Assembly: GCA_022868165.1 (NCBI GenBank)
Contig: JALHYA010000004.1
Coordinates: forward strand, 16,457 to 80,456
Source: Patescibacteria group bacterium
Lineage (GTDB): Bacteria; Patescibacteriota; Microgenomatia; UBA8517
Direction of reading: 5' to 3'
DNA length: 64,000 nt
The notes under the pieces were generated by a model. It was given only the letters and a program-made list of their open reading frames with translations. It was not told where the DNA came from and did not search any database. This document shows, one piece after another, positions 10,080-40,835 of the stretch. The translations under genes and the position numbers were made by a program. The first letter of the stretch is position 1, and the number at the start of each line of letters is the position of its first letter.

Positions 10080-11803
10080 AGCCCAAAATCCCGAGCGTGC
10101 AGCTTTCGATTGCCCAAAAGCAAAATCTTTTGGATATTATCGCTCCCCAATCTCTCGATATTGATTTCGACTATATAACCCTAAACGGCGTTTTCTTTAG
10201 AACCATTTTTATTGCCGGCTATCCCAGATTTGTTGCTCCGGGCTGGCTCGAGCCGATCGTCAATTTCAACAACTCCCTGGATATTTCCTTCTCTATTTAC
10301 CCGGTCGAGGGTAAAACGGTCCTTGATGATTTACGAAGAAAAATTGCCGAGATGGAGGCCGAAATCGGAACCGACTTGGAAAGAGGAAAAATCGTTGACC
10401 CCTCAACACAGGCAAAACTTGAGGATGCAAGAAACCTGCAGGAACAACTTGTAAAGGGCGCAGAGCGTTTTTATCAGTTTTCTTTCTACATAACAATTCC
10501 GGCTCCGACACTTGAGGAGCTCAATCACATAACCCACCAGGTTGAATCAACTCTCGGTTCGCTCTTGATTGTTTCCAAGCATGCAATTTTGGACATGGAT
10601 TCGGGTTTCCTATCGACTGCCCCCTTTGGTTTAGACAAGCTGGCAATAACAAGAAACATGGACACAACTTCACTTTCCACAACTTTTCCGCTAACAAGCG
10701 CCGAGCTTTCCAGCGACCGCGGAGTCTTGTATGGAATTAATTCCAAAAACGAATCTTTTATTATTTTCGACCGCTTTTCAATGGAAAACAGCAACATGAC
10801 GATTTTCGCTACTTCGGGTGCGGGAAAATCCTACTTCGTAAAACTTGAGGCCTTAAGAAGTCTAATGCTGGGAACGGAAATAATCGTTCTGGACCCGGAA
10901 AGCGAATACAAAAGCCTTTGCGATGCTGTTGGGGGACAATTTATAACTTTTTCTTTCAACTCTCCTTCAAAAATAAATCCGTTTGACCTTTCGCAAATTT
11001 ATGAGGAAGGAGAAAATCAACTGGGACTAAAAATTCTTTCTCTCCACTCTCTATTTAAGGTAATCATGGGCCAGATTACTCCCATACAAGAAGCTCTTTT
11101 GGATAGGTCGTTGGTTGCGACCTACCGGGCCAAGGGAATAACCCAAGACCCTACAACACAGAAAAAAGAGCCGCCTTTAATGGAAGACCTTTATAAAATG
11201 CTTGTGGGAATGGAAACTCCCGAGGCTTTGGACTTGGCCGCAAGGATTGAAAAATTCGTCAGAGGCTCTTTTGTGGGAATCTTTGACAGGCAAACAAATG
11301 TCGATTTGAATAATCCGTTCACCGTTTTTTCTGTCAAAGACCTTCAGGATGTTCTGCGCCCAATCGCAATGTTTGTAATCCTCGATTATGTTTGGACAAG
11401 AGTCAAAAAGGATATTAAAAAGAGGCTTTTAATTGTAGATGAGGCCTGGCACATGATGAAATACCCGGACTCTGCACAATTTTTGTGGTCGGTGGTCAAA
11501 AGGGCCAGAAAATATTATTTGGGTCTTACAACTATCACCCAAGACGTAGAAGACTTTTTGGGTCAGGATATCGGAAAGGCGATAGTTACCAACTCCGCTT
11601 TGCAGCTTCTTCTTAAACAATCGCCTGCGGCTATAGATAAAATTGCCGAAGTTTTTTATTTGTCGCAGGGAGAAAGACAGCTTCTCTTGGCCGCCAACAT
11701 CGGTGAGGGAATCTTCTTTGCCGGTCCTCACCACGCTCCCATTAGGATTGTTGCCTCGGATGCGGAACATAAACTAATATCCACCAAACCCTTAGCAACA
11801 TGA
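10076..11803 (+). CDS. virB4: VirB4/TrbE-like T4SS ATPase (central + C-terminal ATPase domains)
   Basis: Walker A 'ATSGAGKSYF', Walker B 'LLIVDEAWHMM', 575 aa. Confidence 0.7.
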   Translation: MKPKIPSVQLSIAQKQNLLDIIAPQSLDIDFDYITLNGVFFRTIFIAGYPRFVAPGWLEPIVNFNNSLDISFSIYPVEGKTVLDDLRRKIAEMEAEIGTDLERGKIVDPSTQAKLEDARNLQEQLVKGAERFYQFSFYITIPAPTLEELNHITHQVESTLGSLLIVSKHAILDMDSGFLSTAPFGLDKLAITRNMDTTSLSTTFPLTSAELSSDRGVLYGINSKNESFIIFDRFSMENSNMTIFATSGAGKSYFVKLEALRSLMLGTEIIVLDPESEYKSLCDAVGGQFITFSFNSPSKINPFDLSQIYEEGENQLGLKILSLHSLFKVIMGQITPIQEALLDRSLVATYRAKGITQDPTTQKKEPPLMEDLYKMLVGMETPEALDLAARIEKFVRGSFVGIFDRQTNVDLNNPFTVFSVKDLQDVLRPIAMFVILDYVWTRVKKDIKKRLLIVDEAWHMMKYPDSAQFLWSVVKRARKYYLGLTTITQDVEDFLGQDIGKAIVTNSALQLLLKQSPAAIDKIAEVFYLSQGERQLLLAANIGEGIFFAGPHHAPIRIVASDAEHKLISTKPLAT

Positions 11804-14163
11804 GCCAAGAAGAAGCTCGAAAACTTTTAGATGCATGGGCGTTTTTCGATAAACATCCCGAAGCCAAAAGCTGGGAAGGAATGCCGCGGCCAGAATTTTA
11901 TCGGCTGGTACAAATCATTGCCGGCACTGACAATTTGGTCGATGCCAAGGAATATTTCGAGGGAGTTGCCGCAGGAACCATAACCGGCGACATGCCGACC
12001 GCACTTCTTGAGGCCCAAAAAGAAGGGCAAGATATTTCCACGCGCCTTTCGACTTCCAAAAGTGCTTCGAGAGTCACAAAGGGTTGGTTGGCCAAATTAA
12101 GCACTAAGAGCGCAGAGGAAGTAGCAGAAAAGCAGGTGGCTGCGGCCCAAGTTCGGGCCGTAGTCGAAAGAGCAGAGGAAGAAACTCCCGCACTCAAAGA
12201 GGTTCCAAAGCCTAAAGCAACCAAGACGGTCGTGCCCTCTTCCGCGGAGACCCCGCCCTCGGCACCGGCCACAACACCGTCTACACCCGTTGAGGAAGGC
12301 CTTAGTATAAAAATTTCCAGCGGGGCATTTGGGTCTTTTGAACAAATGGCCGGAAAAGCGGCAGGAACTCCCCTGGCAATAATTTCTATGTTCTCTCCCC
12401 CCAAGAGCTCGATGACTCCCCAAACAAGCGCCGCTGTTTCGAGCGCCCTAAGTCTTTCCCAAGTAGCACAAAGGGCCGAAAAACTTCCTGAGGCGGACAG
12501 AGAGCACATCTTGTCTTTGGTTAACAATCTTAGAAAGGCCGAGTTTTCTTTTGTCCAACAAACCCGGCTTCTTTCCGTTCGAGAAATCACTATTCTCAGC
12601 GGTTCCGAGTTCGGGATGGACCAGGAAAGCATAGTTGCCCTCCTCGGCGGAGGGCGGGGTATTCCCGAAAGAGGCCCTTCTTTCGTTGCTCGGGTAGGAC
12701 AACAGCTTTTCGGCAGCATCGCCAAAAAGGCGGCAAGCAAGGCAATTGCAGGAGCACTAACCAAAGCAGGAATCTCTGTTGCCGGCAAAGCCGTTGCCGG
12801 AGCCGTAGGTCAGGCCGCAATCCCCATTCCCGGAGTCGGTTTTATTGTCGGCCAAATTATCGACTGGATTGCAAATAAAGCAGTGGATCTGGCCTCCCGT
12901 GTAGCTATCTGGATTAAAGAACACGGAAAAGAAGTTGTCGGGGGTCTTTTGATTGGCGGAGGAATCTTAATCGGCGGGTTTGCCGGATTGGCTGCCGGAA
13001 TTGCTGGCGGAGCAATTGCGCTGGGCGGTTCCGGGCTAAGCACAATCGCATCTGGAATTGGGAGTTTCTTTTCATTTATCTTTACCGGAATAATTCTTCC
13101 TTCAATTGGAATTCCGATATTGGTAGCCCTCTTTGCTGTTCCTGCAGTTATTGTAATTATTCTTTTTATTATCAACTCCAGTGCCTATATTGTCCCTCCT
13201 CGGACGGGATTTATAAGCGGAGAAAATCCTTATATAGGCGTAGAAAAAGTAGCCAGCCCCACGGGGCCCTTTAGCAACGACGACCTTTTCAAAACTCCCC
13301 CGATAGTTGTCGAATATACCATCACAATAACGGCGAAAAAGGGTACTCTGACCAATATAAGTTTTGCTTATGACTGCGAGGTTATAAAAAAGGGCTCGAC
13401 AGAGGACTGCCCTAATGCAAATTTAGTCGACTCGCAAGGGAAAGCAATTACAATTGGGCCGCAAGCAAACTTAAGAATCTCTCCGACCGAGCCCTACAAA
13501 ATTACATATCAAGCCCAGTATTCCGGCGGCCGCTTTCAAGACTCTGCAATTATAGATACCCTGACGGTTACCGCGGACGCGGCAGAACAAAACGGGGCGC
13601 AAGCAAGCGGCGGTGCAGCCGTAATAATCGGAAACCCCCCGACCGGCTGTTTCAGGTTTGATGATTCCTGGCCGGCCAATCTAAAGGCAAATGAGGTTAG
13701 AGCAATTACCGAGCTTACAAGGGCCAGTGTATATATGACAAGACTTTGTGCTGCAGGAGAAATTGTTCTGAAATACGGCGGGAACAACGGCGGTGTCGGC
13801 GGAGATGTTATCGCCGGTCCCAACATTATCACCATCTATTCTGCGGGCGTGCAATATGGACCCACAAGCACCCTCTATACCACAACGCACGAATCGGGCC
13901 ACATCTTTGCAAGAAGATATGGAGGAATTTTTAGACAATATGCGGACACGCCTGGCGTTGGCAATGTTCTTATCTGCACTTATCCTTTCAACAACAGCGT
14001 TGGAGAAAGCTTTCCCGAAATGATAGGTCTTTTTGTGGCCAACAGCCCGGGACATGCCCCAATTAATCTCTTCGGCTGTTTGGGTGGAAGTTTTAAAACC
14101 AAATATCCTGCACACTGGCAGTTTGCGCGAAACGTAATTTTTCAGCAAGACCTGGGGTGGTAA
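11800..14163 (+). CDS. Large membrane protein (Ala/Pro-rich N-terminal region, Gly-rich multi-TM core, extracellular C-terminal domain), T4SS-associated, unknown function
   Basis: 787 aa; TM block 'GGLLIGGGILIGGFAGLAAGIAGGAIALGG...'; C-terminal HESGH (HExxH-like) motif of uncertain significance. Confidence 0.5.
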   Translation: MSQEEARKLLDAWAFFDKHPEAKSWEGMPRPEFYRLVQIIAGTDNLVDAKEYFEGVAAGTITGDMPTALLEAQKEGQDISTRLSTSKSASRVTKGWLAKLSTKSAEEVAEKQVAAAQVRAVVERAEEETPALKEVPKPKATKTVVPSSAETPPSAPATTPSTPVEEGLSIKISSGAFGSFEQMAGKAAGTPLAIISMFSPPKSSMTPQTSAAVSSALSLSQVAQRAEKLPEADREHILSLVNNLRKAEFSFVQQTRLLSVREITILSGSEFGMDQESIVALLGGGRGIPERGPSFVARVGQQLFGSIAKKAASKAIAGALTKAGISVAGKAVAGAVGQAAIPIPGVGFIVGQIIDWIANKAVDLASRVAIWIKEHGKEVVGGLLIGGGILIGGFAGLAAGIAGGAIALGGSGLSTIASGIGSFFSFIFTGIILPSIGIPILVALFAVPAVIVIILFIINSSAYIVPPRTGFISGENPYIGVEKVASPTGPFSNDDLFKTPPIVVEYTITITAKKGTLTNISFAYDCEVIKKGSTEDCPNANLVDSQGKAITIGPQANLRISPTEPYKITYQAQYSGGRFQDSAIIDTLTVTADAAEQNGAQASGGAAVIIGNPPTGCFRFDDSWPANLKANEVRAITELTRASVYMTRLCAAGEIVLKYGGNNGGVGGDVIAGPNIITIYSAGVQYGPTSTLYTTTHESGHIFARRYGGIFRQYADTPGVGNVLICTYPFNNSVGESFPEMIGLFVANSPGHAPINLFGCLGGSFKTKYPAHWQFARNVIFQQDLGW

Positions 14164-29009: not shown

Positions 29010-29132
29010 TTCTTAGAAAAGAAGCGGTATTGGGGCTTCTGGGAATGCAGGAAAAGGCGGAATAATCTTCAAAGCATCCTTTTTACCGTTCCTTTTTGAT
29101 TATAGGATTAAGAATTGGTACAATTCGCACAT

Positions 29133-29687
29133 ATGGAGAGGATAGGTAGAAGGGACTTCCTTAAAATTATAAAAGTGGCGGGGGGAGGATTGATCTTGGC
29201 AGGCTGCGGGATTCCTACACCCCATCCAACTCCCGAGGCCGAAGAGGGAGAAATTTTTAGAGGAATAGTGGCAGATCCGGAAGATGGCTCTTTATGGGTT
29301 ATCCTTGATGAAGATTACAGAATTGTAGGAAGCTCGGCTGGAAGCTTCTATCGCTGGGTACCGGAAGAATCTATACCCGTAGATGAAAGACAAGATGGGG
29401 TAAGGTGGGGATTGTGGTCGAATAGGGAAGGGCGAGGAAGGATAAGGTTTATGAGGCTGGAAGGTTTTCAGGGAGATTTAAATTCTTCTATTTTCTTGGC
29501 GGATGCGAATAATGGAACTATCTGGAGAATGGTTGATAGAGACTACAAACTAGTTGGTAACTACCAAGGTATATTTGACGGTTGGGTGGATGAGGAAGAG
29601 GGAATTCGTAGCGGCAGATGGTCAAATAGAGAAGGTTATGGCACAGTCGGATTCGTGTGCATAGAAGAGCCGGAAGAGACTAAATAA
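29133..29687 (+). CDS. TAT-signal lipoprotein with two internal ~75-aa repeats, unknown function
   Basis: 'MERIGRRDFLKIIKVAGGGLILAGC' (twin-arginine motif + lipobox LAGC); repeats 'DGSLWVILDEDYRIVGSSAGSFYRWVPEE' / 'NGTIWRMVDRDYKLVGNYQGIFDGWVDEE' and 'WSNREGRGRIRFMRLE' / 'WSNREGYGTVGFVCIE'. Confidence 0.55.
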   Translation: MERIGRRDFLKIIKVAGGGLILAGCGIPTPHPTPEAEEGEIFRGIVADPEDGSLWVILDEDYRIVGSSAGSFYRWVPEESIPVDERQDGVRWGLWSNREGRGRIRFMRLEGFQGDLNSSIFLADANNGTIWRMVDRDYKLVGNYQGIFDGWVDEEEGIRSGRWSNREGYGTVGFVCIEEPEETK

Positions 29688-29750
29688 ATCCTCTAGTGGT
29701 AAAATAGTGACTAACTAAACCACTTGTTGGTTTTGAAGCGTTAACCTAAA

Positions 29751-31076
29751 ATGAGAGAAAGAATGCCTGAACAGAAGTCTGAAATAGTTGAGGTTCCCCA
29801 TGAGGAATTTGTAGCGCGGGCTATTGTCGAAAACGCCAGAAACATGGCCCGTTTTTCAATTGGCCAAACCCCGCCCCCCAACTTTGATTTGGAGAGAGCA
29901 ACCGATTTGGAAGTTGCAAGACATCTTTCTGATGTACAAGTTGACGACAAAAGTCTAGCACAAGATATAAAAGAGGCTCTTGATAGAAATCTCGCAGACC
30001 CGGATGAAGCTTTTCAGGCAGCAAGCCTGACAGTAGCCAAAGCCATAGCTACAGAAGAAGTCGTATTGCCGAATGAAAGAGGATTCTTTAAAAGAGTCTC
30101 CGATAAAGTGGCAAAAGAGATGGGTCAGCTTATCGCCTCAAAATCCGGGAAGAGAGGTTTAGCTGTAGTTTCTGGCCTTTCGCTTGTCGCCACCGCCTGC
30201 GGTCAGGTTGCCCAAGGAGCAGAACCCTTAAGGCCAATAGACCTTGAAACTCCGACTACCGTGGCCACAGAGGTCAGACCTACCAGCACTCCTTTTTCAC
30301 CGGTTCCGCCAACCGAAATAGCCACCCCCACCCCCGAAGCGGTTAGGGATGAGTGGCAGGTATCGGCAGACGGGCTTATTCTTTACAATGAAGCAGAGTT
30401 ATATGACGGGATGTTTACTATAAACCCGGAACGAACAGGATATCTTTACGAACAACTGATGCGGAGTCTTTATCAAATTAACGTGGCGGGGGAAAATATG
30501 CCCTTCTTAAGACAATTTCCGACTCTCGAAGCTTTTATTCAATATGCCCATACTGGACAACCCATAAATAATATGTGGATTGCCATTGACCACCCGGGAA
30601 GCGGGGTAAGGTACCTGTATCAAGCAACTTGGGCTCCAGTTGAACCCGTAGACCTTTCCTCAACGGCCGTTGCTATTGTCCATCTAACCTATGATGATAT
30701 CGTGCATCCTACCACCCGGGACGAAAGGCCATTCTTTCCCGTCGAGGAGGGCGTGGGCGAGCTGGTAATAGAAAGGGTGGAAATAAACGGCGGTTTTGTC
30801 ATAAGGTTTACTTTCCGGCAAAGTCTTTATGATGACTCGGACTATGGCACTTTAGGGCTGTCAGATGATTATCCTTCGGAGCATAATTTGGCGGCAATAA
30901 CCCAGCTTATGAATGCTTGGTCTTGGGAAGTCGACCATATGAGGGATGATGAGGACGATATTCGTATAACTGGTGCGACCCCGCCCATATTCAACATAAC
31001 CAAAAGTTGGCCCAGTGAGGGGGAATTTAGAGAAATGGCAGAAGATGTTGAGAACTCTCCTTTTGTGCTTCGTTAA
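29751..31076 (+). CDS. Hypothetical single-pass membrane protein (cytoplasmic N-domain, extracellular C-domain)
   Basis: 441 aa ORF, TM 'GLAVVSGLSLVATAC'. Confidence 0.45.
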   Translation: MRERMPEQKSEIVEVPHEEFVARAIVENARNMARFSIGQTPPPNFDLERATDLEVARHLSDVQVDDKSLAQDIKEALDRNLADPDEAFQAASLTVAKAIATEEVVLPNERGFFKRVSDKVAKEMGQLIASKSGKRGLAVVSGLSLVATACGQVAQGAEPLRPIDLETPTTVATEVRPTSTPFSPVPPTEIATPTPEAVRDEWQVSADGLILYNEAELYDGMFTINPERTGYLYEQLMRSLYQINVAGENMPFLRQFPTLEAFIQYAHTGQPINNMWIAIDHPGSGVRYLYQATWAPVEPVDLSSTAVAIVHLTYDDIVHPTTRDERPFFPVEEGVGELVIERVEINGGFVIRFTFRQSLYDDSDYGTLGLSDDYPSEHNLAAITQLMNAWSWEVDHMRDDEDDIRITGATPPIFNITKSWPSEGEFREMAEDVENSPFVLR

Positions 31077-31122
31077 GTCACTTGAAAGATTTACCTTTTT
31101 TTGTAAAGATTAAGGTAGGTAT

Positions 31123-31641
31123 ATGAATAAGCTTCTTTATATTCTATTTGGTATAGTATTTGTCCTTGCTACTGTTTTAGGGGTGTTGTATGAAAGACGG
31201 GGAGGCTTGGTATTTTTGAGTAAAGACAAAATAAACTTCATAAGTAGTAAGAGCGGATTTGAGTGGGAAGTAAACGAAGATTTTGTGCGTTCGCTCGAAG
31301 AGTTGATTAGGACGAAAGAGGGCTCCGAATCGAAGAAAGTATTGGTAGTTCTCTCCTCCGAATTCAAACAAACACCCGAAGGTGGGGGATATGGAGAGCT
31401 TGAACCGTTTGTTTATGCAGAGTGGAGTTCTTCTGGAAATCGGGATACTTTAAATATCTACCTTGATGGCAATATTTGGAAGCAAATAGAAGAAAAGAAG
31501 AGAAATACCCCTGTGTCTTATCTGATATCTCAACAAATTCTGCAACACTTTGAGATGACCGATGAACCTTTAGAGAAGATTACTGAAGATATTTTTAACA
31601 ATGGACCAAAAATTTCTATTAAGGAAAGTTCAATTTTTTAA
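31123..31641 (+). CDS. Hypothetical N-terminally anchored protein
   Basis: 172 aa, N-terminal TM. Confidence 0.4.
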   Translation: MNKLLYILFGIVFVLATVLGVLYERRGGLVFLSKDKINFISSKSGFEWEVNEDFVRSLEELIRTKEGSESKKVLVVLSSEFKQTPEGGGYGELEPFVYAEWSSSGNRDTLNIYLDGNIWKQIEEKKRNTPVSYLISQQILQHFEMTDEPLEKITEDIFNNGPKISIKESSIF

Positions 31642-31648
31642 ATTTGCC

Positions 31649-33265
31649 ATGAGGAAACTAATATTGCTAATCTTTTCAGGTTTGATCTTTATTGCATTAT
31701 TTGTTGTCCCCAAAAACATTCAGGCTGCTTGTACTGGTAATACGAAATGCGCACCTTATAGTGGAGGCCATTGTTGGTGGGAGGAGAGTATGTACTATAC
31801 AGTAGGCTGTACCGCCTCGCCACAGTGCGAGGGGAATCCCTGTAATAAGGCCATTTGCCTAGTATCCGATACCTGTGCTTATGTCTGTAATCCTGGTGCA
31901 ACAACTTGTGGTCCTTGTTCCAAAACTTGTGGAGGAGGAATAAGTCTCTGTACGAATGGGTGTAGTTCGTGGAATGTGAATTGTAATACCCAGGCTTGTC
32001 CTCCGCCTGGCTGTCTTTGTGGTAACTGGGTGGACGGCGCCTGCGGTGTTGGTTTATGCGGCTCCAGCGAGCGGCAGCAAACAAGAACCTGTGTCCCTGC
32101 CGCCTGTGCCGCCGAAACCCAATGCGTTGTCGATCCAACTTGTACACTTCCTTCCAGTTGCACCGTTGATCTTCTACCGGCAACAGCCACAACATCAGTG
32201 GGCTCAAGCGTAACGCTTACGGCTTCGGTTACGGTAGGAAGTGGAACCGTTGACCAGGTAAATTTCACTTCTGCCAATACGGGGATTCTTACGGTAAGCC
32301 CGGCTTCCGACAGCACCGTGACGTATCAAACGCAGGCAACAGGGGTGGCCATTGGTTCAACTACCGTATCCACAGAGGTGATTATGGGCGGGGTTTCAAC
32401 TTGCGCTGATAGTGCTGGGTTAGGCGGAGGCACAGTTGTTAATGTGACTTCCGCAGGCCCTTGGTGGCAGGTGATTGATGCGGATATTACAACAAATGGA
32501 AGCATAACATCCAGCATTCCTGGAACTTGCGCCTTGCCGGGATGTAATCCCTTGTTTGATTTGGTCGGCCCCGGAGGCTATCCTGGTGTGCCTGCTTACG
32601 GGGGAACGGCAAGTTTTAGTACAGGCACGGTTTCTACTATTGGATGGCTGGCAAACACTTTAAGTCTAACTTCCAATAACCGGCAATATGCATATGCCTG
32701 GTTTAAGAGACTGATTCCTTCGGATGTAACTATGAATGAGATAACTTCACCTTCCATTGACGGCACCGAGCTTTCTTCAGGGGGAACGGCCAGTGGGGGA
32801 TACTATTATTACCGTTATGACGGCTCAAGCGGGCTGGATTTAACCATAAACACCGATGCTTCGTTGGGCACAAGAAAGGTAATTTTGCTGGTGGACGGGG
32901 CAGATTTGAACCTAAACGCAAGGATTAACTTCACAAAGGGACAGGGATTCTTTATGGCTTTTGTCGGCAAAACCCTGCTGGGGGCCAAGGGTAACATCAA
33001 TGTTTCTTCAACGCTTGGCGGAGGAGTCACACCCCATCTTGAAGGATTGTATGAAGCCGATGGCGCTTTCCATTCAGGAGCAGGAACAACACAGCTTTAT
33101 ATTCGCGGGTCTGTTGCGGCATATGGGGGAATGAATTTGGAACGGAATTTGACCGATAATTCCGCCACCCCGGCCGAAGTCTTTGAATACGCGCCCGATT
33201 TAATCTTCACCTATCCCTATAAACTTAGGGAAAGAAGGATCTTCTGGCAAGAAGTAGCCCCATAG
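31649..33265 (+). CDS. Cys-rich secreted adhesin-like protein (TSP1-like Cys-knot repeats, Ig-like domain, beta-helix-like C-terminus)
   Basis: Signal anchor 'MRKLILLIFSGLIFIALFVVPKNIQA'; 'CGPCSKTCGGGISLCTNGCSSW' resembles thrombospondin type-1 repeat cores; 'LTASVTVGSGTVDQVNFTSANTGILTVSP' Big-2-like. Its last 119 bp are duplicated at 39509-39627. Confidence 0.55.
   Translation: MRKLILLIFSGLIFIALFVVPKNIQAACTGNTKCAPYSGGHCWWEESMYYTVGCTASPQCEGNPCNKAICLVSDTCAYVCNPGATTCGPCSKTCGGGISLCTNGCSSWNVNCNTQACPPPGCLCGNWVDGACGVGLCGSSERQQTRTCVPAACAAETQCVVDPTCTLPSSCTVDLLPATATTSVGSSVTLTASVTVGSGTVDQVNFTSANTGILTVSPASDSTVTYQTQATGVAIGSTTVSTEVIMGGVSTCADSAGLGGGTVVNVTSAGPWWQVIDADITTNGSITSSIPGTCALPGCNPLFDLVGPGGYPGVPAYGGTASFSTGTVSTIGWLANTLSLTSNNRQYAYAWFKRLIPSDVTMNEITSPSIDGTELSSGGTASGGYYYYRYDGSSGLDLTINTDASLGTRKVILLVDGADLNLNARINFTKGQGFFMAFVGKTLLGAKGNINVSSTLGGGVTPHLEGLYEADGAFHSGAGTTQLYIRGSVAAYGGMNLERNLTDNSATPAEVFEYAPDLIFTYPYKLRERRIFWQEVAP
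33147..33265 (+). repeat. 119-bp direct repeat, copy 1 (3' end of the adhesin-like CDS incl. stop) = putative attL
   Basis: 100% identical to 39509-39627. Confidence 0.85.
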
Positions 33266-33923: not shown

Positions 33924-34585
33924 TGATCGAGTCCAAAGAAAGTTCATATCTTTTGTATGGTCCTCCCGCAAGTGGTAAAACTGCACTTGCCCTCGAATTA
34001 AGCAGGAGGATTGCCAAGGAGTACATTTCAGTTGGCGAGCTTACTCGTAGGGAAATCGAATTAGGAACACCTAGGGGTAAAAGACTTCAGAGGTGTTTAG
34101 ACGAAGTTACCGAATATCCAATAGAGTTAATTACAGGATTGGTAGAGGAGAGCATTGTTGCTTGTATGTCGGCGGGCGAGAATTTCATTTTAGATGGTTT
34201 TCCTAAATATGCCCAAGAGGCTCGAGCGTTCGTAAAACTATTAGAAAAACACAGGATTCTCCTAGATGCAGCAATTGTAATTGACCTACCCGTTGAAGGA
34301 GCTTTTGTGCGAGTTCTTAACAGAAGAATTTGTGTTTCCTGTCTAGCGCAAACAGAAGATGGCGGACAAATATGTCCGCAATGTGGAGATGCCCTTACTA
34401 TAAGAGACGACGATATCCCACCCATATTTAAAAGAAGGTATAATGACTATAAGGACTCAATAGACGAAACACTTAGAATTATCGGACCATTTTGTAAGAG
34501 GATAATCCACATACAGGGCTCACAAAGCAAAGAAGATTTATTTAATTTGCTGTATATAAAATTATCCCTTTCCATGCCCGAGTAG
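33923..34585 (+). CDS. adk: Adenylate kinase-like NMP kinase with Zn-binding LID
   Basis: P-loop 'GPPASGKT', 'DGFPK', LID 'CVSCLAQTEDGGQICPQCG...RDDD'. Confidence 0.6.
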   Translation: MIESKESSYLLYGPPASGKTALALELSRRIAKEYISVGELTRREIELGTPRGKRLQRCLDEVTEYPIELITGLVEESIVACMSAGENFILDGFPKYAQEARAFVKLLEKHRILLDAAIVIDLPVEGAFVRVLNRRICVSCLAQTEDGGQICPQCGDALTIRDDDIPPIFKRRYNDYKDSIDETLRIIGPFCKRIIHIQGSQSKEDLFNLLYIKLSLSMPE

Positions 34586-34651
34586 CTCAGCAGAGAGAGC
34601 GGTTGCGTTGTAAGCAACAGGTCGATGGTTCAAGTCCATCCTCGGGCTCCA
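34576..34651 (+). tRNA. tRNA-Thr (anticodon TGT), CCA encoded
   Basis: Cloverleaf: acceptor gcccgag/ctcgggc, anticodon stem gttgc/gcaac with loop gtTGTaa, T-arm gatgg-ttcaagt-ccatc; 76 nt. Confidence 0.85.
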
Positions 34652-34658
34652 ACAGTTT

Positions 34659-35576
34659 ATGAAAAATAAGGCCATTTTTACTTGGAAAGAGATCGTAGAA
34701 CTTTTAACTGGAAATGGTCACGCGGTTTCTTGTGCAGACATGAGTTCTCTGATTACATACTCCAGACAGCGTGGAATAGGCACGGCTATTTCTTATCAAA
34801 AAACCTCGTACTCAGAAGAAGGCTTGAAAAATCTTAAACGACTTGTTCGGTGGTGGATTTATCTAGACGATTTCACTATCCCCGAGTGGAGAAACGCTAT
34901 TATTACAAAAAAGATTCAAAAAATAGTTGTCGGCTCGTTAAAAAATAACTTACCTCTGACTTTGTACGCAGTATTCTGTCCTTCCTACAAAAAAGGGGTT
35001 GGAGTATCTGGATATACTGGGAAATTAGGAATGCATACCAAAAGGTATATTCAAAAAATGTCAGAATTCGTTCTTTCCACGGAAGATGCGGGCTTGAAAG
35101 TAAAAGGGACAGCCTTTTTTAGCGACCTTCTTTTAGAAAATTACAAAAGACTTGTCGGAACGAACTATAAAAAGGATCTCGCGTCCAACTTTCGAGAATT
35201 CAAAAAAGATATTAAAAAAAACAGTAAAGGAAAAATAAAAAGTGCTCTTTTGTCATCTATCATGGCCCTTAAGCGTGATGTCGGGGAGAAAGGGATAAAG
35301 ACTGGCCCTTTGGGGATATCAGGTGAGCTTTTTAATACGGTCTTTAAGAGGAATAGAGTTTTTTATACAAACCAGCTTGGCTGGTCGGAGCCCATGGTAA
35401 AAGAAAGAACGGAGGTCTTGGCCAGAAGTTACGCAAAACTTGGGGAATACTTTAGGAAGAAATATCCCGAGGGAATTATGTTTTGGGTAGAGAGTGCTTA
35501 CGAGAGGGGTGCCATGTATAGCGGAAACAATCAGCAGGACCCTATTCCAATAATTTATCCCAAAAAAGATGAATGA
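34659..35576 (+). CDS. Hypothetical protein (305 aa), first gene of a tightly packed 5-gene operon
   Basis: ORF with 8-bp overlap to the next gene; no recognisable motif. Confidence 0.45.
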   Translation: MKNKAIFTWKEIVELLTGNGHAVSCADMSSLITYSRQRGIGTAISYQKTSYSEEGLKNLKRLVRWWIYLDDFTIPEWRNAIITKKIQKIVVGSLKNNLPLTLYAVFCPSYKKGVGVSGYTGKLGMHTKRYIQKMSEFVLSTEDAGLKVKGTAFFSDLLLENYKRLVGTNYKKDLASNFREFKKDIKKNSKGKIKSALLSSIMALKRDVGEKGIKTGPLGISGELFNTVFKRNRVFYTNQLGWSEPMVKERTEVLARSYAKLGEYFRKKYPEGIMFWVESAYERGAMYSGNNQQDPIPIIYPKKDE

Positions 35577-36546
35577 CAATTCCAAAATAGAGGGGCTTCT
35601 AAGCAACTTGGAACTTGAGTGGTTTAGGCTGGGCCGAGATTTCCACCTCGATTTTGAATTTCTTACAAATCTTTACAGCAAGGAGAAAAAACATATTTTC
35701 GAACATAGCCCCTATCATGTACTCTCCTATTTACGATTCAAAAACCAGCTCTACGGTATTTCAGGCAGATTTGGTTCTCTAGTTTTGGTTTCGAGAAAAG
35801 ATGACAAATTTCTATTTACCCCTCGCATTGACGACTTTAAATCATTCGAGCTTTTTATCAAAGCAATTAAAAGGAGCCTCGGGGTTACCAAAATTGAAAT
35901 TCGGAACGTCAGTGAGCAATGGTTACAATCATTCCTGGTGAATGTATCAAATGTTGCGAAAAGGGGGATGTCTGTGAAAGAGCGCTCAAGGGAGGAGGCT
36001 ATCTATGATGTCGACCTGTTGTGCGAACTCCGCGGAAAAGATTTTGCAGGGATTAGACAATCCAGAAATAAGTTGTTAAACAGTGGAAGTATTCAGTTTA
36101 AGCCCTTTACTAAAATTTCCTTAAAGGACGGTGTAGGGGTCTTAAATAAATGGCAGAAAGTCCAAGGTTGGAAGTATGTTAAAGAGAGAATAGAGAAAGA
36201 GAAATATGTACTTGCGAGATTTTTTGATTTTTCTCGGTTAACAAAGAATGTATTGTGTGGGGTTGGCTATTATAAGGAAGTGCCTTTAAGTATTCTGGTT
36301 ATGCACCTTGTTCCAAACGGGGAAAAAAGCGGAACAATCTACCTACTTAAAGGAATAAACAGGCCTTCTGACGGGGGCACCCATGGAATATCAGATGCTA
36401 CTTACTGTTACGCTTTCCTTAGAGCTAAGGAGATGGGTATAAAATACCTCAATGATGGAGAATTGGGAACAGAAGAGGGTACAAGGAGACACAAACTCAA
36501 TTTTAAGCCGATAGAATTTCTCAAATCCTACGACGTTTTGCTCTAA
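35569..36546 (+). CDS. Hypothetical protein (325 aa); weak resemblance to GNAT-fold/aminoacyl-transferase-like (DUF2156-type) proteins
   Basis: ORF in operon; similarity judged by eye only. Confidence 0.4.
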   Translation: MNDNSKIEGLLSNLELEWFRLGRDFHLDFEFLTNLYSKEKKHIFEHSPYHVLSYLRFKNQLYGISGRFGSLVLVSRKDDKFLFTPRIDDFKSFELFIKAIKRSLGVTKIEIRNVSEQWLQSFLVNVSNVAKRGMSVKERSREEAIYDVDLLCELRGKDFAGIRQSRNKLLNSGSIQFKPFTKISLKDGVGVLNKWQKVQGWKYVKERIEKEKYVLARFFDFSRLTKNVLCGVGYYKEVPLSILVMHLVPNGEKSGTIYLLKGINRPSDGGTHGISDATYCYAFLRAKEMGIKYLNDGELGTEEGTRRHKLNFKPIEFLKSYDVLL

Positions 36547-36548
36547 AT

Positions 36549-37688
36549 ATGAAACAGCTAAGAACGAATGAGTTTTATAACGAGATCGAATTTGAAAAAA
36601 TTTTCCCCCCTCAACTTTATGAAAATTTCAACTCTGAATTGCCAGCACCACTAAATGGACGGACAACAATTTTCACCTTATATGGCAGAAATGCTCTGTA
36701 CCTTGGTGCGAGAGAGATGTTAAATTTGACTAAAAGAAACATTGTGCTAGTTCCGGCCTACTCGTGTGGGGATGAAATAGCTCCATTTGTAGCTTCCGGT
36801 TGCAGAATTAAAGCTTACCGTGTACACCCTGAAACCTTGCAGGTAGATAAAAAGGATATTGAGCAGAAATTGGATCAGAATGTTTCTGCGGTTTTGATAA
36901 CACACTATTTTGGTTTTCCTCAAAAGGAAATAGAAATTATAAAAAAGATATGTGGAGAAAGGGGAGTCGTACTTATTGAAGACTGTGCCCACGCTTTTGC
37001 GGGTGGATTTAAAAACATCCCCCTAGGTGCTTTTGGGGACTTTTCCATTTTTAGTTTAAGAAAGTTTTTGCCTATTCCGCATGGGGGAGCTCTGGTCATA
37101 AATAACACGAAGATAAACAGACCAAATCCCCTCCCGCCACCGGCTACGGCAGTAAATCTTGACCTTTTTCTTTATTCGGGTTACCAGGCTGGTATTTTTA
37201 CGCGAGGAATAAACATTCAGGACACACTCGATATGGTAGGTGTCAAACAAAAAGATTTACATGGCCCACGGCTAAAAGAGTTTGGTGGTTATAATTTAGG
37301 TCTTTCCAATGTTGCAAAAGTTCTAATCGCATTTATTGCAAAGCAGAAATTGTGGACAAAGAGAAGATCAAACTTTCTTTATTATTTGGACTTTTTCGAA
37401 AAGAATTCGCATAAATCGGTGCAACCGCTGTTTGAATTCCTTGAGAAAGGGGTAGTACCTTTATTTTTTCCTGTTCTAGTAAACGACTCTGAAGAGATAT
37501 ATAAAAGATTGAGAGACAAGGGCCTTTTTGCTGGACAACCATTCTGGTCTGATTCCCATACCTATTTCAACTGGGCTGATTTTTCGCCCTTAAACGAGCT
37601 GAAGAAGAAGGTTATGGTTTTGCCAGTGAATCATAGAGTCCATTATCGAGACTTAAAGCGTTTCCTTGAAGTTTCAGACTATAGGTAG
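36549..37688 (+). CDS. DegT/DnrJ/EryC1/StrS-family PLP-dependent aminotransferase-like protein
   Basis: 'VPAYSCGDEIAPFVASGCRIKAYRV...VSAVLITHYFGFPQKEIEIIKKICGERGVVLIEDCAHAFAG' matches the DegT-family core. Confidence 0.6.
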   Translation: MKQLRTNEFYNEIEFEKIFPPQLYENFNSELPAPLNGRTTIFTLYGRNALYLGAREMLNLTKRNIVLVPAYSCGDEIAPFVASGCRIKAYRVHPETLQVDKKDIEQKLDQNVSAVLITHYFGFPQKEIEIIKKICGERGVVLIEDCAHAFAGGFKNIPLGAFGDFSIFSLRKFLPIPHGGALVINNTKINRPNPLPPPATAVNLDLFLYSGYQAGIFTRGINIQDTLDMVGVKQKDLHGPRLKEFGGYNLGLSNVAKVLIAFIAKQKLWTKRRSNFLYYLDFFEKNSHKSVQPLFEFLEKGVVPLFFPVLVNDSEEIYKRLRDKGLFAGQPFWSDSHTYFNWADFSPLNELKKKVMVLPVNHRVHYRDLKRFLEVSDYR

Positions 37689-37700
37689 TATAATTCTTTT

Positions 37701-38978
37701 ATGTGTAGAGACATGTATATACTGTTTGGGCCTCCTGGAAGTGGTAAAACTGTCCAGGCGAGATTTTTGTCCCAAAGGTTGAAACTGGACGGTATTTCAT
37801 GGGGTGACATCTACTGGGGTACAAAGTTTAACAAGAAGTACAAGGGACAAATTGCTGTAATAAAGAAGGAGGCTATCTCTGACAGAACTCGCTCGAAGGA
37901 GATAGCAAAGATAATTGACAAGGAAATTGGCAGCCTTACTTTACGAAATAAAGGCGGGAAGCGGGGGTTGGTTTTGGACGGATTTCCTAGAAGATTGGGA
38001 GAGGCTAGACTCCTTCTTAAAATATGCAAGAAAAGGGGATACAGAATAAAATCCTTGATTCGCATAAATCCATCTTTAGATTTTTCAGCGAACCGCTTCA
38101 AAAAAAGGCTTTTTTGTGAAAAATGCCGCGCTTATTACGATGAACTCAATCTACCCAAGAAGAAGGGTCGTTGTGATTTAGACGGCGGAAGGCTATCTCA
38201 TATGGATATTTCAAAGGAGAGTGTGGCGAAAGAATTTAACACCTATTTAGACGAATGTCTCGAAACATTTGAATATCTCAAAGATTATGCAGACATTTTT
38301 TTTGATGTAACTGGCGACGATGAAGATATGGTTATTTCTTCAAATATTCTTATTAAAATAAAGAATAGAATTCGAGAAAATTATAGTCTCTTTTCAAGAA
38401 AGCCCTCTACATCTATTATGACTAAGTACGGTAGTTTTAAGCTTGTACCCTATCAATCACGACTAGATTATTCCTACCACTTAGCGCTTGTAAAGGGAAA
38501 CGTTAGAGATGGAAAACGAGTACTGGTTAGGGTTCATTCCTCTTGCATAACCGGAGATATTTTTGGGTCCTATATGTGTGATTGCGGAGAACAACTAGAG
38601 GAATCCATGAAAAGAATCGAGCACGAAAAGAGGGGAGTTTTAATATATTTATTTCAGGAAGGCAGGGGCATAAACATGATTAACAAAATTCAAGCTTACA
38701 GGTTACAACGCAATGGGTATGACACAGTGGATGCTAATGAAGCCATCGGTTTTCCAGCCGAAATGAGGGACTACCGGTTAGTGAAGGAGGTTTTGGAGGA
38801 TTTGGGGGTAAAAACAATTAGATTGTTGTCCAATAGTCCCGAGAAGATCAATAAACTTACAGACCAGGGAGTTATTATAGAAGAAATGGTTGGAGTCGAA
38901 GTAGAGCCTCGAAAGTGGAACAGAGGATACTTGCTTACAAAAAAGGAGAAAATGGGTCATAAGTTGGATGTTTCATAA
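37701..38978 (+). CDS. Fusion protein: N-terminal adenylate-kinase-like NMP kinase + C-terminal GTP cyclohydrolase II (RibA)
   Basis: N: 'FGPPGSGKT', 'DGFPRR', Cys LID 'CEKCRAYYDEL...RCDLDGG'. C: 'VRVHSSCITGDIFGSYMCDCGEQLEES...LFQEGRGINMINKIQAYRLQRNGYDTVDANEAIGFPAEMRDY...IRLLSNSPEKINKLTDQGV' aligns with RibA incl. Zn ligands C-x10-CxC and EGRG. Confidence 0.7.
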   Translation: MCRDMYILFGPPGSGKTVQARFLSQRLKLDGISWGDIYWGTKFNKKYKGQIAVIKKEAISDRTRSKEIAKIIDKEIGSLTLRNKGGKRGLVLDGFPRRLGEARLLLKICKKRGYRIKSLIRINPSLDFSANRFKKRLFCEKCRAYYDELNLPKKKGRCDLDGGRLSHMDISKESVAKEFNTYLDECLETFEYLKDYADIFFDVTGDDEDMVISSNILIKIKNRIRENYSLFSRKPSTSIMTKYGSFKLVPYQSRLDYSYHLALVKGNVRDGKRVLVRVHSSCITGDIFGSYMCDCGEQLEESMKRIEHEKRGVLIYLFQEGRGINMINKIQAYRLQRNGYDTVDANEAIGFPAEMRDYRLVKEVLEDLGVKTIRLLSNSPEKINKLTDQGVIIEEMVGVEVEPRKWNRGYLLTKKEKMGHKLDVS

Positions 38979-39507
38979 TAATATGAAAGTTGTTTTAGGG
39001 TCCACAAGTGATGATAAAAAAAGAATTGTAAAGGCAGCCCTGAAATCTCTTGGTGTAAAGGCTGTGATTGAGGGGGTTACTGTCTCTTCGGGGATAAGTG
39101 AGCAGCCTTTAGATAAAAAGACCACGATTTGCGGTGCAGTGAATCGGGCGGTAGAAGCCTTGAAAATTAAAACCGATTCGGACCTCGCTGTGGGGTTAGA
39201 GGGGGGCTTGGATCGAGTAAAAGATTCAGGCTTTTTTCTTGTGTGTGCGGCTGCTATATATGACAAAAGCGGAGGAATCTATCTGGGAACGAGCAGGAAA
39301 ATAAAACTTCCCAAAGAAGTATCTGAAAAAATAGAGGAGGGGGCATTTTTCGGAACGGTAATTAGAGAATATAGAAAGAAAGTAAGAAAAAATAAGGCAT
39401 TGTTTAATCTTTCAGACCAACTTATAACAAGAAATGTCCCTTTTTCAGAGGCAATACGAAACGCCTATAAATCTTTCAAAGAAGGTACACTCTATCAAAA
39501 GTTTTAG
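38968..39507 (+). CDS. YjjX-family non-canonical purine NTP phosphatase (ITPase/XTPase, DUF84)
   Basis: 'MKVVLGSTSDDKKRIVKAALKSLG....VSSGISEQPLDKKTTICGAVNRA' parallels YjjX '..[23 protein letters not shown]'; start may be Met at 38983. Confidence 0.55.
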   Translation: MFHNNMKVVLGSTSDDKKRIVKAALKSLGVKAVIEGVTVSSGISEQPLDKKTTICGAVNRAVEALKIKTDSDLAVGLEGGLDRVKDSGFFLVCAAAIYDKSGGIYLGTSRKIKLPKEVSEKIEEGAFFGTVIREYRKKVRKNKALFNLSDQLITRNVPFSEAIRNAYKSFKEGTLYQKF

Positions 39508-39508
39508 G

Positions 39509-39627
39509 ATTTGACCGATAATTCCGCCACCCCGGCCGAAGTCTTTGAATACGCGCCCGATTTAATCTTCACCTATCCCTATAAACTTAGGGAAAGAAGG
39601 ATCTTCTGGCAAGAAGTAGCCCCATAG
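39509..39627 (+). pseudogene. 119-bp direct repeat, copy 2: orphan 3' fragment (last 39 codons + stop) of the adhesin-like gene 31649-33265 = putative attR
   Basis: 100% identical to 33147-33265; an in-frame TAG two codons upstream, no start codon. Confidence 0.85.
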
Positions 39628-39629
39628 GT

Positions 39630-40835
39630 TTAGGCTGAATCGACAATCGTCATCTCCGCGTTAGCTGAAATCTTTTCCAAGGAAGCGGGTTTGTTGTTGA
39701 AAAAGGCATATGAGGCGATATATGCGGCGTTGTCCGTGCAGAGATTTGCGGGAGGAAATCGTAAATCAACTTTTAACTTTTCACTTTTCACTTTTAACTC
39801 AAATACTTGTCGAAGACGAGTATTAGCCGATACTCCTCCAGCTAAAAGAAGGGATTTGGGCTTGAATTTCTTTACTGCGTCCAGAGTCTTTTTAACTAAA
39901 ACGTCAACGATTGCCTCCTGTATTTCTGCTGCCAGCCTGGAAGTTAGAGGTGGGAAGCTTGAAGCTGGATGTAGATGTTGGAGTTTAGATTTATTCCAAC
40001 TTCTAACTTCTTTGTCCAGCTTCTCACCTCTATTTTCCAATTTCTCTGTTTCCCTAAGCACCGCTGTCTTAAGGCCCGAAAAACTGAAGTCAAAATTATC
40101 CTCATCAATCATCGGTCTGGGAAGTAGATTTAGTTGGAAGTGGGAGGCAGGAGGCTGGAAGTTCGCTGCGGCGGCGGCGATGGCTGGTCCTCCCGGGTAG
40201 GGAAGTCCCAAAAGACGGGCGGACTTGTCAAAAGCCTCGCCGGCCGCATCATCCCTTGTTCCTCCAATCCACTCTATTTTTCCCCGCCCGCCAGCGCTAC
40301 GCGCAAGCGTTGCGGGCGCGGCGTGGCCTTTCATCAGAACCAAATCCGTATGTCCTCCGGAAACAACCAGTGCCAGTGCCGGAAATTCCGGCCGACTATC
40401 CGTTAGCCAGTTGGCGTATATGTGTGCCACAAGATGGTTAACCGGAATAACAGGCTTTTTCCATAAATAGGAAAGGGTTTTGGCCGTTTCTACTCCGACC
40501 AAAAGGGAACCAATAAGGCCCGGCCCGACGGTTACGGCAATGGCGTCTATATTGGAAGATAGAAGATGGAGGTTTGAAGCTAGATTTTGATGTTGGATAT
40601 TAGATTTTTCCTCCAACTTCGAACTTCTAACTTCAGAGACAGTACTTAGTGCTTCGGAGATAACAGGAAGAACGCTGAGAACCTGCTGGCGTGCAGCCTG
40701 CTCCGGGATTACGCCGCCAAATTTGGCCTGCATTTCCGCGCTCGATGCAACAACATTGGAAAGAATTTTTGTTCCGTCTTCGACAACTGCCGCTGCAGTT
40801 TCATCACATGAGGTCTCTATCCCCAGAATTTTCAT
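39630..40835 (-). CDS. tsaD: tRNA N6-adenosine threonylcarbamoyltransferase TsaD carrying two in-frame low-complexity insertions derived from palindromic mini-repeats
   Basis: 'MKILGIETSCDETAAAVV', 'VTVGPGLIGSLLVG', 'LVVSGGHTDL', 'DFSFSGLKTAV' TsaD/Kae1 blocks; 401 aa vs ~340 typical; extra segments coincide with repeats at 39935-40030 and 40553-40636. Confidence 0.8.
   Translation of the reverse strand: MKILGIETSCDETAAAVVEDGTKILSNVVASSAEMQAKFGGVIPEQAARQQVLSVLPVISEALSTVSEVRSSKLEEKSNIQHQNLASNLHLLSSNIDAIAVTVGPGLIGSLLVGVETAKTLSYLWKKPVIPVNHLVAHIYANWLTDSRPEFPALALVVSGGHTDLVLMKGHAAPATLARSAGGRGKIEWIGGTRDDAAGEAFDKSARLLGLPYPGGPAIAAAAANFQPPASHFQLNLLPRPMIDEDNFDFSFSGLKTAVLRETEKLENRGEKLDKEVRSWNKSKLQHLHPASSFPPLTSRLAAEIQEAIVDVLVKKTLDAVKKFKPKSLLLAGGVSANTRLRQVFELKVKSEKLKVDLRFPPANLCTDNAAYIASYAFFNNKPASLEKISANAEMTIVDSA
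39935..40030. repeat. Palindromic mini-repeat (copy D) inserted in frame in tsaD
   Basis: ggaagttagaggtgggaagcttgaagctggat...tccaacttctaacttctttgtccagcttctcacctc; arms gaggtgggaagcttgaagctgga / tccagcttctcacctc. Confidence 0.7.
40553..40636. repeat. Palindromic mini-repeat (copy E) inserted in frame in tsaD
   Basis: gaagatagaagatggaggtttgaagctagattttgatgttggatattagatttttcctccaacttcgaacttctaacttc. Confidence 0.7.

Follow-up and report, generated by a model that had tools for sequence, protein, structure and literature searches.

Why would a GTP cyclohydrolase be joined in one polypeptide to an adenylate kinase? The question is raised by a gene on contig JALHYA010000004.1 of the Patescibacteria group bacterium assembly GCA_022868165.1, in a stretch of 64,000 nucleotides that was analyzed as a whole and that we call the window. 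The gene encodes a 425-aa protein in which an adenylate kinase (ADK)-like domain precedes a GTP cyclohydrolase II (GCH II) domain, an architecture written here as ADK::GCHII. Public databases label the protein "GTP cyclohydrolase II" or "RibBA" and assign it to riboflavin synthesis. A sequence-only reading of the window had proposed that the kinase makes or channels GTP for the fused cyclohydrolase in a dedicated pathway. We find a genuine, conserved two-domain protein that is almost restricted to Patescibacteria, with an intact cyclohydrolase half and a kinase half that has lost catalytic residues, encoded in a cassette that recurs in related genomes.

The reading frame of the fusion gene is unbroken, and Pfam recognizes ADK, ADK_lid and GTP_cyclohydro2 within the one protein. 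The motifs named in the sequence-only reading are all in place: GPPGSGKT (10–17), DGFPRR (93–98) and a lid of C139, C142, C158 and D161 in the N-terminal half, and C282...C293-D-C295-G and EGRG (320–323) in the C-terminal half. About 90 clusters (90% identity) have the same ADK + GTP_cyclohydro2 architecture, with 34–54% full-length identity to the window protein, and by source name nearly all are Patescibacteria (Amesbacteria, Blackburnbacteria, Taylorbacteria, Uhrbacteria, Shapirobacteria, Saccharibacteria and others). A contig from Logan, an independent assembly, carries an identical fusion gene and the same seven neighbors. Residue counts out of 82 given below refer to a family alignment of 82 relatives. 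The AlphaFold2 model made with this alignment is one compact two-domain chain (mean pLDDT 92.7, pTM 0.90), and the inter-domain linker is conserved across the family. An assembly or frameshift artefact joining two genes, which the sequence-only reading had named as a danger, has a negligible chance of being right: the architecture recurs in independent clusters from many samples, the independent assembly agrees to the letter, and the linker and the confident single-chain model argue the same way.

The C-terminal half aligns with the catalytic core of RibA, as had been proposed. It scores 205 bits against Pfam GTP_cyclohydro2 (PF00925; gathering score 23.3) and 220.9 bits against the NCBIfam ribA equivalog TIGR00505 (cut-off 205.85). 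In E. coli RibA we take the zinc ligands to be Cys54, Cys65 and Cys67, the catalytic tyrosine Tyr105 and the nucleophile Arg128, as in the 2bz0 literature. Alignment to 2bz0, 4i14 and 4rl4 places the ligands at C282, C293 and C295, Y333 at Tyr105 and R356 at Arg128. These five residues and some 40 further positions are invariant in all 82 relatives. The model of the domain matches chain B of E. coli RibA (2bz0_B) with a template modeling (TM) score of 0.94 and a root-mean-square deviation of 1.6 Å (Foldseek). The C-terminal half has, in sequence and modeled fold, the full features of an active GCH II, and normal chemistry would be expected of it. GCH II converts GTP to 2,5-diamino-6-(5-phosphoribosylamino)pyrimidin-4-one (DARP), formate and pyrophosphate.

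Is the fusion then a housekeeping RibA for riboflavin with a fortuitously attached adenylate kinase, as the public annotation implies? The ribA equivalog cut-off is met, identity to RibBA C-domains is 50–55%, and published papers on Patescibacteria list, and do no more than list, "riboflavin biosynthesis" genes. The gene context speaks against it. A tblastn search found no homologs of RibD, RibH, RibE, RibB, RibF, Ndk or Gmk in the 64-kb window, and, in 11 related loci of the candidate phyla radiation (CPR), no match to RibD, RibH, RibC, RibB or RibF within 8–10 kb of the fusion. The queries for rib genes were validated by their matches in non-CPR control loci. The positive controls were ordinary RibBA loci from a scan of a genome collection with GCHII-domain patterns of the family alignment, which yielded almost only such loci, the fusions being L005 and L006. 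The operon, which is conserved, joins the fusion not to rib genes but to a tRNA and unrelated enzymes. Sister cassettes use GTP cyclohydrolase IA or IB, which are unable to feed riboflavin synthesis, and the N-domain fails the residue tests for an adenylate kinase described below. We therefore reject the riboflavin reading as very improbable. That the pathway is a dedicated one, as the sequence-only reading had it, is supported by the absence of rib homologs from the window and from the surroundings of the fusion in the 11 loci, and by the conserved multi-gene cassette.

The N-terminal half does have the adenylate kinase fold. Pfam ADK (PF00406) matches with 47.6 bits (gathering score 26.8) and ADK_lid (PF05191) matches aa 136–165, and the model of the domain aligns with the zinc-lid adenylate kinases 1p3j and 1zin at a TM score of ~0.76 (Foldseek). 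Every NCBIfam adk equivalog falls far below its cut-off (TIGR01351, 80.7 against 168). The P-loop lysine K16, W34, R97 (equivalent to R88 of Adk), R132 and R136 (R119 and R123) and the Cys3Asp zinc lid are kept. Lost are R36 (W39), R156 (H167/M168), D159 and R167 (E178), so that of the catalytic arginines R36, R88, R123, R156 and R167 only the equivalents of R88 and R123 are present. In E. coli Adk, the substitutions R88A, R123A, R156K and R167A each leave <1% of activity, and R36A leaves 17% (PMC8297476). With R36, R156 and R167 lost, the fused domain is unlikely to be an efficient phosphotransferase, even with its ATP-site residues intact. A further change is family-wide: E101, at the position of Gln92, is glutamate in 82/82 fused domains and in all 15 aligned stand-alone or GCH I-fused kinases of the cassettes, and Trp occupies the Thr31 position in 79/82. 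We take Gln92 of Adk to read the adenine of AMP. A carboxylate there would suit the N1-H/2-NH2 face of guanine-like bases. Thus, despite its fold, the N-domain is not classed as an adenylate kinase, as it fails both the arginine and the Gln92 tests. Of the description in the sequence-only reading, the likeness to adenylate kinase, P-loop, DGFPRR and cysteine lid stand; the loss of catalytic residues that it had warned of is found in the kinase half and not in the cyclohydrolase half.

The loss is not uniform across the family. In the CYTH-fused proteins (~650 aa) and some proteins of 420–433 aa, no residue of the Adk catalytic set (R36, R88, R123, K-R-x-D-D, R167) is missing. In the clade of the window protein R156, D158/D159 and R167 are lost, and a third group lacks the lid entirely. 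These differences bear on whether both halves are active, with the N-domain phosphorylating GMP or GDP and handing GTP to the fused cyclohydrolase. Such channeling would draw on the P-loop, R88, R119, R123, zinc lid and invariant Glu101 that are kept, on the sister clades (CYTH-fused and P0039-type) that retain the full set, and on a pTM that suggests a fixed geometry between the domains; parallel fusions of ADK to GTP cyclohydrolase I and substitutions by nucleoside diphosphate kinase (NDK) also point to GTP supply. For the window protein we nevertheless consider it unlikely. The effect of single R156 or R167 substitutions is severe, the R156 and R167 positions are unconserved throughout its clade, and the operon also encodes a stand-alone paralog that has the LID residues. 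For this protein the channeling claim of the sequence-only reading is thus not supported, with W, H/M and E at R36, R156 and R167 and with D159 lost.

This paralog, ADK220, lies ~3 kb upstream of the fusion and its orthologs hold the same position in all loci with the gene arrangement of the window (type A, below). R36, R123, R167 and an R-D-D-D lid motif are present in it, the R88 position is K and the Q92 position is Glu; of the kinases in the cassette it is likely the active one. In each of the nine loci with a stand-alone ADK-like gene (9/9), R156, D158/D159 and R167 are missing from the fused domain, and three of the four loci without such a gene have a complete fused domain, a correlation that fits subfunctionalization. 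Because the lid residues are lost in the fused domain while the paralog carries the LID arginines, the fused domain is probably degenerate. It is most likely a nucleotide-binding remnant that is catalytically weak or dead, with a putative regulatory or scaffolding role.

The wider distribution of the cassette suggests what the kinases are for. The operon of the window is ordered GreA-like protein, ADK-like kinase, tRNA-Thr, an orphan protein (w305), a DUF2156-like protein, a DegT-like protein, the fusion, and an ITP/XTPase of the NTPase_I-T family (Table 1), with overlaps or gaps of ≤12 nt from w305 onward. The same order recurs at 35–55% protein identity in many loci from divergent CPR lineages. 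A metagenome scan for the w305 family gave 36 loci. Type A loci have the arrangement of the window, and 9/9 that are long enough carry ADK::GCHII; in L090 the genes for the DUF2156 and DegT proteins are absent. Type B loci encode GTP cyclohydrolase I (FolE), CYTH, a w305-like protein and often an ADK-like kinase, with FolE immediately upstream in 20/24 loci and FolE2 in its place in L103, L119 and L129. L108 (1041–2276) and L109 encode an ADK-like domain in fusion with GTP cyclohydrolase I. This architecture is found in ~31 clusters of ~400-aa proteins (P0191–P0221) and parallels ADK::GCHII. Other combinations are a stand-alone GCH II followed by NDK::w305 (L126, 1043–2341); FolE2, CYTH, w305::ADK (6001–7413), NDK and NUDIX in L129; w305::LPG_synthase_C in L130 (6001–7893) and w305::DUF2156 in P0311, P0312, P0316, P0330 and P0353; GCHII::NTPase_I-T in P0091; and ADK::GCHII::CYTH. 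L088 has ADK, the fusion and CYTH, with Gmk and Ham1 downstream, Ham1 taking the place of NTPase_I-T. Some cassettes have NDK in place of the ADK-like kinase or in addition to it. A single orphan enzyme is thus found with GTP cyclohydrolases of three unrelated kinds, and the kinases and tri-/diphosphate hydrolases that accompany it are interchangeable.

GTP cyclohydrolases II, IA and IB all start from GTP, release its C8 as formate and pass through an early intermediate with an opened ring, and their products differ. Because it is the substrate and not the product that they have in common, the kinases are best placed on the substrate side. A role in GTP supply is suggested since the kinase is fused or adjacent to unrelated cyclohydrolases, is swapped with or supplemented by NDK or Gmk, and is accompanied by ITP/XTPases. 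An NMP (nucleoside monophosphate) kinase yields GDP, not GTP. The proposed link between kinase and GTP therefore holds at the level of the family, where Glu92-type kinases occur in cassettes with all three cyclohydrolases and NDK can be swapped in, and is not supported for the fused domain of the window.

We favor, as somewhat better than an even bet, a kinase-fed and GTP-consuming first step of a CPR pathway in which the fused kinase has probably degenerated. Glu92-type kinases of the cassette would raise guanine (6-oxopurine) nucleotides to the triphosphate level, and the cyclohydrolase would commit that GTP to the specialized pathway. The ITP/XTP-type triphosphatases may remove mis-phosphorylated products that a Glu-based kinase would make from IMP or XMP. 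Next, w305 and the DUF2156-like and DegT-like enzymes, a transferase and an aminotransferase, would modify the ring-opened product, probably with threonyl-tRNA from the operon's own tRNA-Thr. A more specific proposal is decidedly more tentative: the fusion may be the entry enzyme of a new, CPR-restricted pathway in which Glu92-type ADK-like, NDK or Gmk kinases make GTP on the spot for interchangeable cyclohydrolases, w305, DUF2156 and DegT proteins act on the diaminopyrimidine or pterin that is formed, threonine is delivered by the tRNA or the tRNA is itself the target of a modification, and the product is a nucleotide- or pterin-amino-acid conjugate.

The same kinases could instead act after the cyclohydrolase, on DARP, an NMP analog with a guanine-like face that they would phosphorylate to the di- or triphosphate, its level being set by NTPase_I-T, Ham1, CYTH and NUDIX hydrolases. 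Glu at the Q92 position would fit the retained 2-amino-4-oxo face of DARP, several such hydrolases recur in the cassettes, and NDK is fused to w305. The same kinases also accompany cyclohydrolases IA and IB, whose product already has a triphosphate and is no NMP analog, and the fused domain of the window has lost catalytic arginines, so we regard product-side kinases as improbable. There is a similarly slim chance that the cassette serves catabolism or pool sanitation, degrading guanine nucleotides for ribose phosphate or formate, or lowering GTP. CPR bacteria depend on nucleotides that they scavenge, kinases and hydrolases of nucleotides abound in the cassette, and groundwater CPR are noted to have a COG3236-type N-glycosidase that acts on intermediates of riboflavin. 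The cassette itself lacks an N-glycosidase, spending ATP on GTP merely to destroy it is costly, and the PLP (pyridoxal phosphate) aminotransferase, DUF2156 transferase, w305 and dedicated tRNA point to biosynthesis.

Several points weigh against the kinase-fed pathway that we favor. L006 has a degenerate fused domain and no nearby stand-alone kinase. The fused domain is under clear purifying selection (40–44% identity between lineages, with the P-loop, R88, R119, R123, E101 and zinc lid kept), and it could still be catalytic, by a changed mechanism or on a different substrate. The guanine argument from Glu92 leans on the known role of Gln92. The products of GCH II and of GCH I/IB differ such that a shared chemistry for w305 is not obvious, and CYTH has no evident role beside the GCH II product, which has no triphosphate. 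The window is 64 kb of one contig, and riboflavin genes, ndk and gmk could lie elsewhere in the genome.

The protein w305 is the constant partner of these cyclohydrolases: wherever the checked contig reached, it adjoins one of type II, IA (FolE) or IB (FolE2). It has no Pfam or NCBIfam match (PF05141, none even at E ≤ 1), and its family has 116 representatives among 1.84 billion. The AlphaFold2 model (pLDDT 95.7) has its closest PDB folds in the isonitrile synthases PIsnA and PvcA (Foldseek E-value 2.4e-5 and TM score 0.58 for PIsnA; 10–14% identity). Weaker matches are the catalytic domains of tyrosyl- and tryptophanyl-tRNA synthetases and the cyclodipeptide synthases (CDPSs). CDPSs use aminoacyl-tRNA. 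IsnA joins an amine to ribulose-5-phosphate (PMC7949033). We also considered w305 as the enzyme of an Amadori rearrangement and cyclization of DARP to dihydroneopterin phosphate. This idea, which was only an idea, fails to unify the cassettes because GCH I/IB already perform that step, and it leaves the pairing with GCH I/IB unexplained.

Where the fusion carries or neighbors CYTH, a second orphan family of ~350–385 aa, also without a Pfam match (unk376; Table 1), replaces w305. By hhalign the two families show no relation (probability 1%). In L088 the CYTH gene is followed by a 323-aa orphan, to which the w305 profile has no match, and then, two genes past the fusion, by a 1041-aa protein (10783–13908), with Gmk and Ham1 next. 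This protein has a partial PRAI match (31.4 bits; gathering score 22.7) and a weak phosphoribosyltransferase match. PRAI, phosphoribosylanthranilate isomerase, is an Amadori-rearrangement enzyme.

The tRNA-Thr is likewise a conserved member of the cassette. In 17/17 type A loci that span the site, the window included, it stands after the stand-alone ADK-like gene and before w305, and 12 copies compared have a mean identity of 89%, far above that of the flanking proteins. The D-loop, AGCAGAGA, lacks G18G19 and is invariant in these 12 copies; in five other tRNAs on the same contigs GG is present. The acceptor stem, with G1-C72 and C2-G71, is invariant, as are G35 and U36, and the anticodon stem shows compensatory changes. 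The first base of the anticodon (position 34) varies, giving UGU in four copies, AGU in six and CGU in two. U occupies position 37 in 8/12 copies, and A occupies position 33 in 2/12; the tRNA of the window has the canonical U33 and A37, yet the same odd D-loop. The identity set of threonyl-tRNA synthetase is presumably the acceptor stem plus G35-U36. Because G18G19 is lost and positions 37 and 33 are altered in part of the copies while this set is kept, the tRNA is a candidate for a non-decoding role. It may be a dedicated tRNA that serves w305 and/or the DUF2156 transferase; alternatively, the tRNA itself could be the target of a modification.

The tRNA is also interlocked with its neighbors. 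The ADK220 ORF runs 10 nt into it, the TAG stop (34583–34585) being nt 8–10 of the tRNA, and the w305 gene begins 7 nt past its 3′ end. The ADK-like ORF ends in "P-[G/E]-stop" in most other aligned type A loci as well. Processing by RNase P would sever the ADK220 mRNA upstream of its stop codon. Aberrant tRNA-like genes flank some type B cassettes (L112 4415–4489, L129 4529–4604 and L116 11380–11454). The one in L112 has an 8-nt anticodon loop and is unassignable by ARAGORN, and those in L129 ("Val") and L116 ("Gly"), whose T-loop is TGCAAGA, score below the Rfam tRNA gathering score.

Table 1. Coordinates of the cassette features. Positions are those of the window unless a locus is named.
Feature	Position	Strand	Basis
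GreA/GreB-like protein, 188 aa	33357..33923	+	Weak GreA matches below cut-offs; syntenic first gene
Stand-alone ADK-like paralog (ADK220), 220 aa	33923..34585	+	Pfam ADK 75.4 bits; alignment
tRNA-Thr(UGU)	34576..34651	+	ARAGORN; Rfam tRNA 63.3 bits; alignment
Orphan protein w305, 305 aa	34659..35576	+	AlphaFold2 and Foldseek
LPG_synthase_C (DUF2156)-like protein, 325 aa	35569..36546	+	PF09924 34 bits (gathering score 27.5)
Distant DegT/DnrJ/EryC1-family PLP aminotransferase-like protein, 379 aa	36549..37688	+	Pfam 76.7 bits
ADK-like::GTP cyclohydrolase II fusion protein, 425 aa, ATG start	37701..38978	+	ORF, Pfam, NCBIfam, AlphaFold2, Foldseek
N-terminal zinc-lid adenylate-kinase-fold domain, aa 8–194	37722..38282	+	HMMER against PDB adenylate kinases; family columns; MAFFT with E. 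coli and B. subtilis Adk
C-terminal GTP cyclohydrolase II catalytic domain, aa 236–397	38406..38891	+	Alignment to 2bz0, 4i14, 4rl4; Foldseek
NTPase_I-T (DUF84, inosine/xanthosine triphosphatase family), 179 aa	38968..39507	+	Pfam 98 bits
Other tRNA-Thr copies	L001 5012-5085; L085 4915-4988; L086 4904-4978; L090 9921-9993; L130 5918-5993; others		
Second orphan family (unk376)	L003 10732-11862; L087 10634-11788; L005 11902-12960; L006 7898-9007		

Among the remaining genes of the operon, the DUF2156-like protein is a putative aminoacyl-tRNA-dependent transferase or acyl transferase. The DegT-like protein has the Schiff-base lysine and an EDCAHA motif in alignment to 4zwv. The first 11 nt of the NTPase_I-T gene are also the last 11 of the fusion gene. 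Orthologs of the GreA-like protein adjoin the cassette in L085, L090, L091, L093, L101, L127 and L130, and a functional tie to the cassette is uncertain. We rejected an Rnk-type regulator of nucleoside diphosphate kinase as the identity of this neighbor, as its scores are weak and are exceeded by those of GreA models. A scan for promoters and terminators gave no more sites than shuffled sequence.

Outside the operon, a 401-aa TsaD, an enzyme of N6-threonylcarbamoyladenosine (t6A) synthesis, is encoded convergently on the minus strand (39630–40835). Its Pfam match falls in two stretches, which suggests an inserted segment. The adjacency of TsaD to a cassette with tRNA-Thr is not conserved in related loci and is probably a coincidence. 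Upstream of the cassette (29115–33265, plus strand), four consecutive ORFs of 190, 441, 172 and 554 aa have no Pfam match at E ≤ 0.001. In L129 (2095–3436), an RT-16 RNA (Rfam RF03019, 86 bits) lies by a gene for a reverse transcriptase (RVT_1), 1–2 kb upstream of the FolE2-type cassette. The G+C fraction of the cassette (34001–40000) is ~0.40 against 0.48 in flanking 2-kb bins; other parts of the window are equally low, and this is weak evidence of transfer. In one survey, "riboflavin biosynthesis" genes were among those exchanged exclusively between Patescibacteria (PMC12455944).

CPR bacteria, or Patescibacteria, make up a large share of bacterial diversity, and most of their conserved lineage-specific genes are without an assigned role. 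If the separate pathway is real, metabolic reconstructions of CPR that count the fusion toward riboflavin are wrong at this point. We found no description of the fusion or the cassette in the literature searched, and searches on RibA in CPR, on CYTH with GTP cyclohydrolase and on PIsnA gave nothing specific. The cassette is a tractable set of six to seven genes and one tRNA, with an orphan family and three interchangeable GTP cyclohydrolases. The fusion family is also a natural series from a fully equipped to a degenerate fused kinase, in which the decay of a domain to a binding or regulatory module after takeover by a paralog could be followed.

How does the cassette compare with known systems? 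The C-terminal domain has the fold of E. coli RibA (2bz0) and M. tuberculosis RibBA (4i14), with 42–43% identity and the same zinc ligands and catalytic Tyr and Arg. It differs from RibBA in its N-terminal partner, which is an ADK fold and not a 3,4-dihydroxy-2-butanone 4-phosphate synthase (no PF00926 match), and in its signature, EGRGIN in the fusion family and mostly EGRGIG in 78 canonical RibBA loci. The N-terminal domain shares the fold, P-loop, DGFPR, R119/R123 and Cys3Asp lid with the Adk of B. subtilis (1p3j) and G. stearothermophilus (1zin). The fusion family is set apart from these by the invariant Glu for Gln92 and the near-invariant Trp for Thr31, and the window fusion additionally by the absence of R36, R156, D159 and R167. 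ToxB of toxoflavin biosynthesis is reportedly a GCH II in a non-riboflavin pathway, and the fusion would resemble it as a RibA-type enzyme recruited for the first step of a specialized GTP-derived pathway. Unlike the toxoflavin system, the cassette has no ToxA, ToxC, ToxD, ToxE or RibD-like partners. The model of w305 is structurally closest to IsnA and PvcA (9dh4, 3e59), and w305 has no oxygenase partner of the IsnB/PvcB type; its association with GTP cyclohydrolases is new relative to IsnA/PvcA, CDPSs and aminoacyl-tRNA synthetases. Non-proteinogenic tRNA systems include the staphylococcal tRNA-Gly used by FemXAB and the aminoacyl-tRNA transferases of the VlmA/MprF-C type. The tRNA of the operon resembles such tRNAs in lacking G18G19 and, in most lineages, a purine at position 37, in retaining the acceptor stem and G35-U36, and in adjoining a DUF2156 transferase and a protein with a predicted fold like that of aminoacyl-tRNA synthetases. 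It would differ from the tRNA systems of cell wall and lipid modification in that the amino acid would be threonine and the acceptor a compound derived from GTP.

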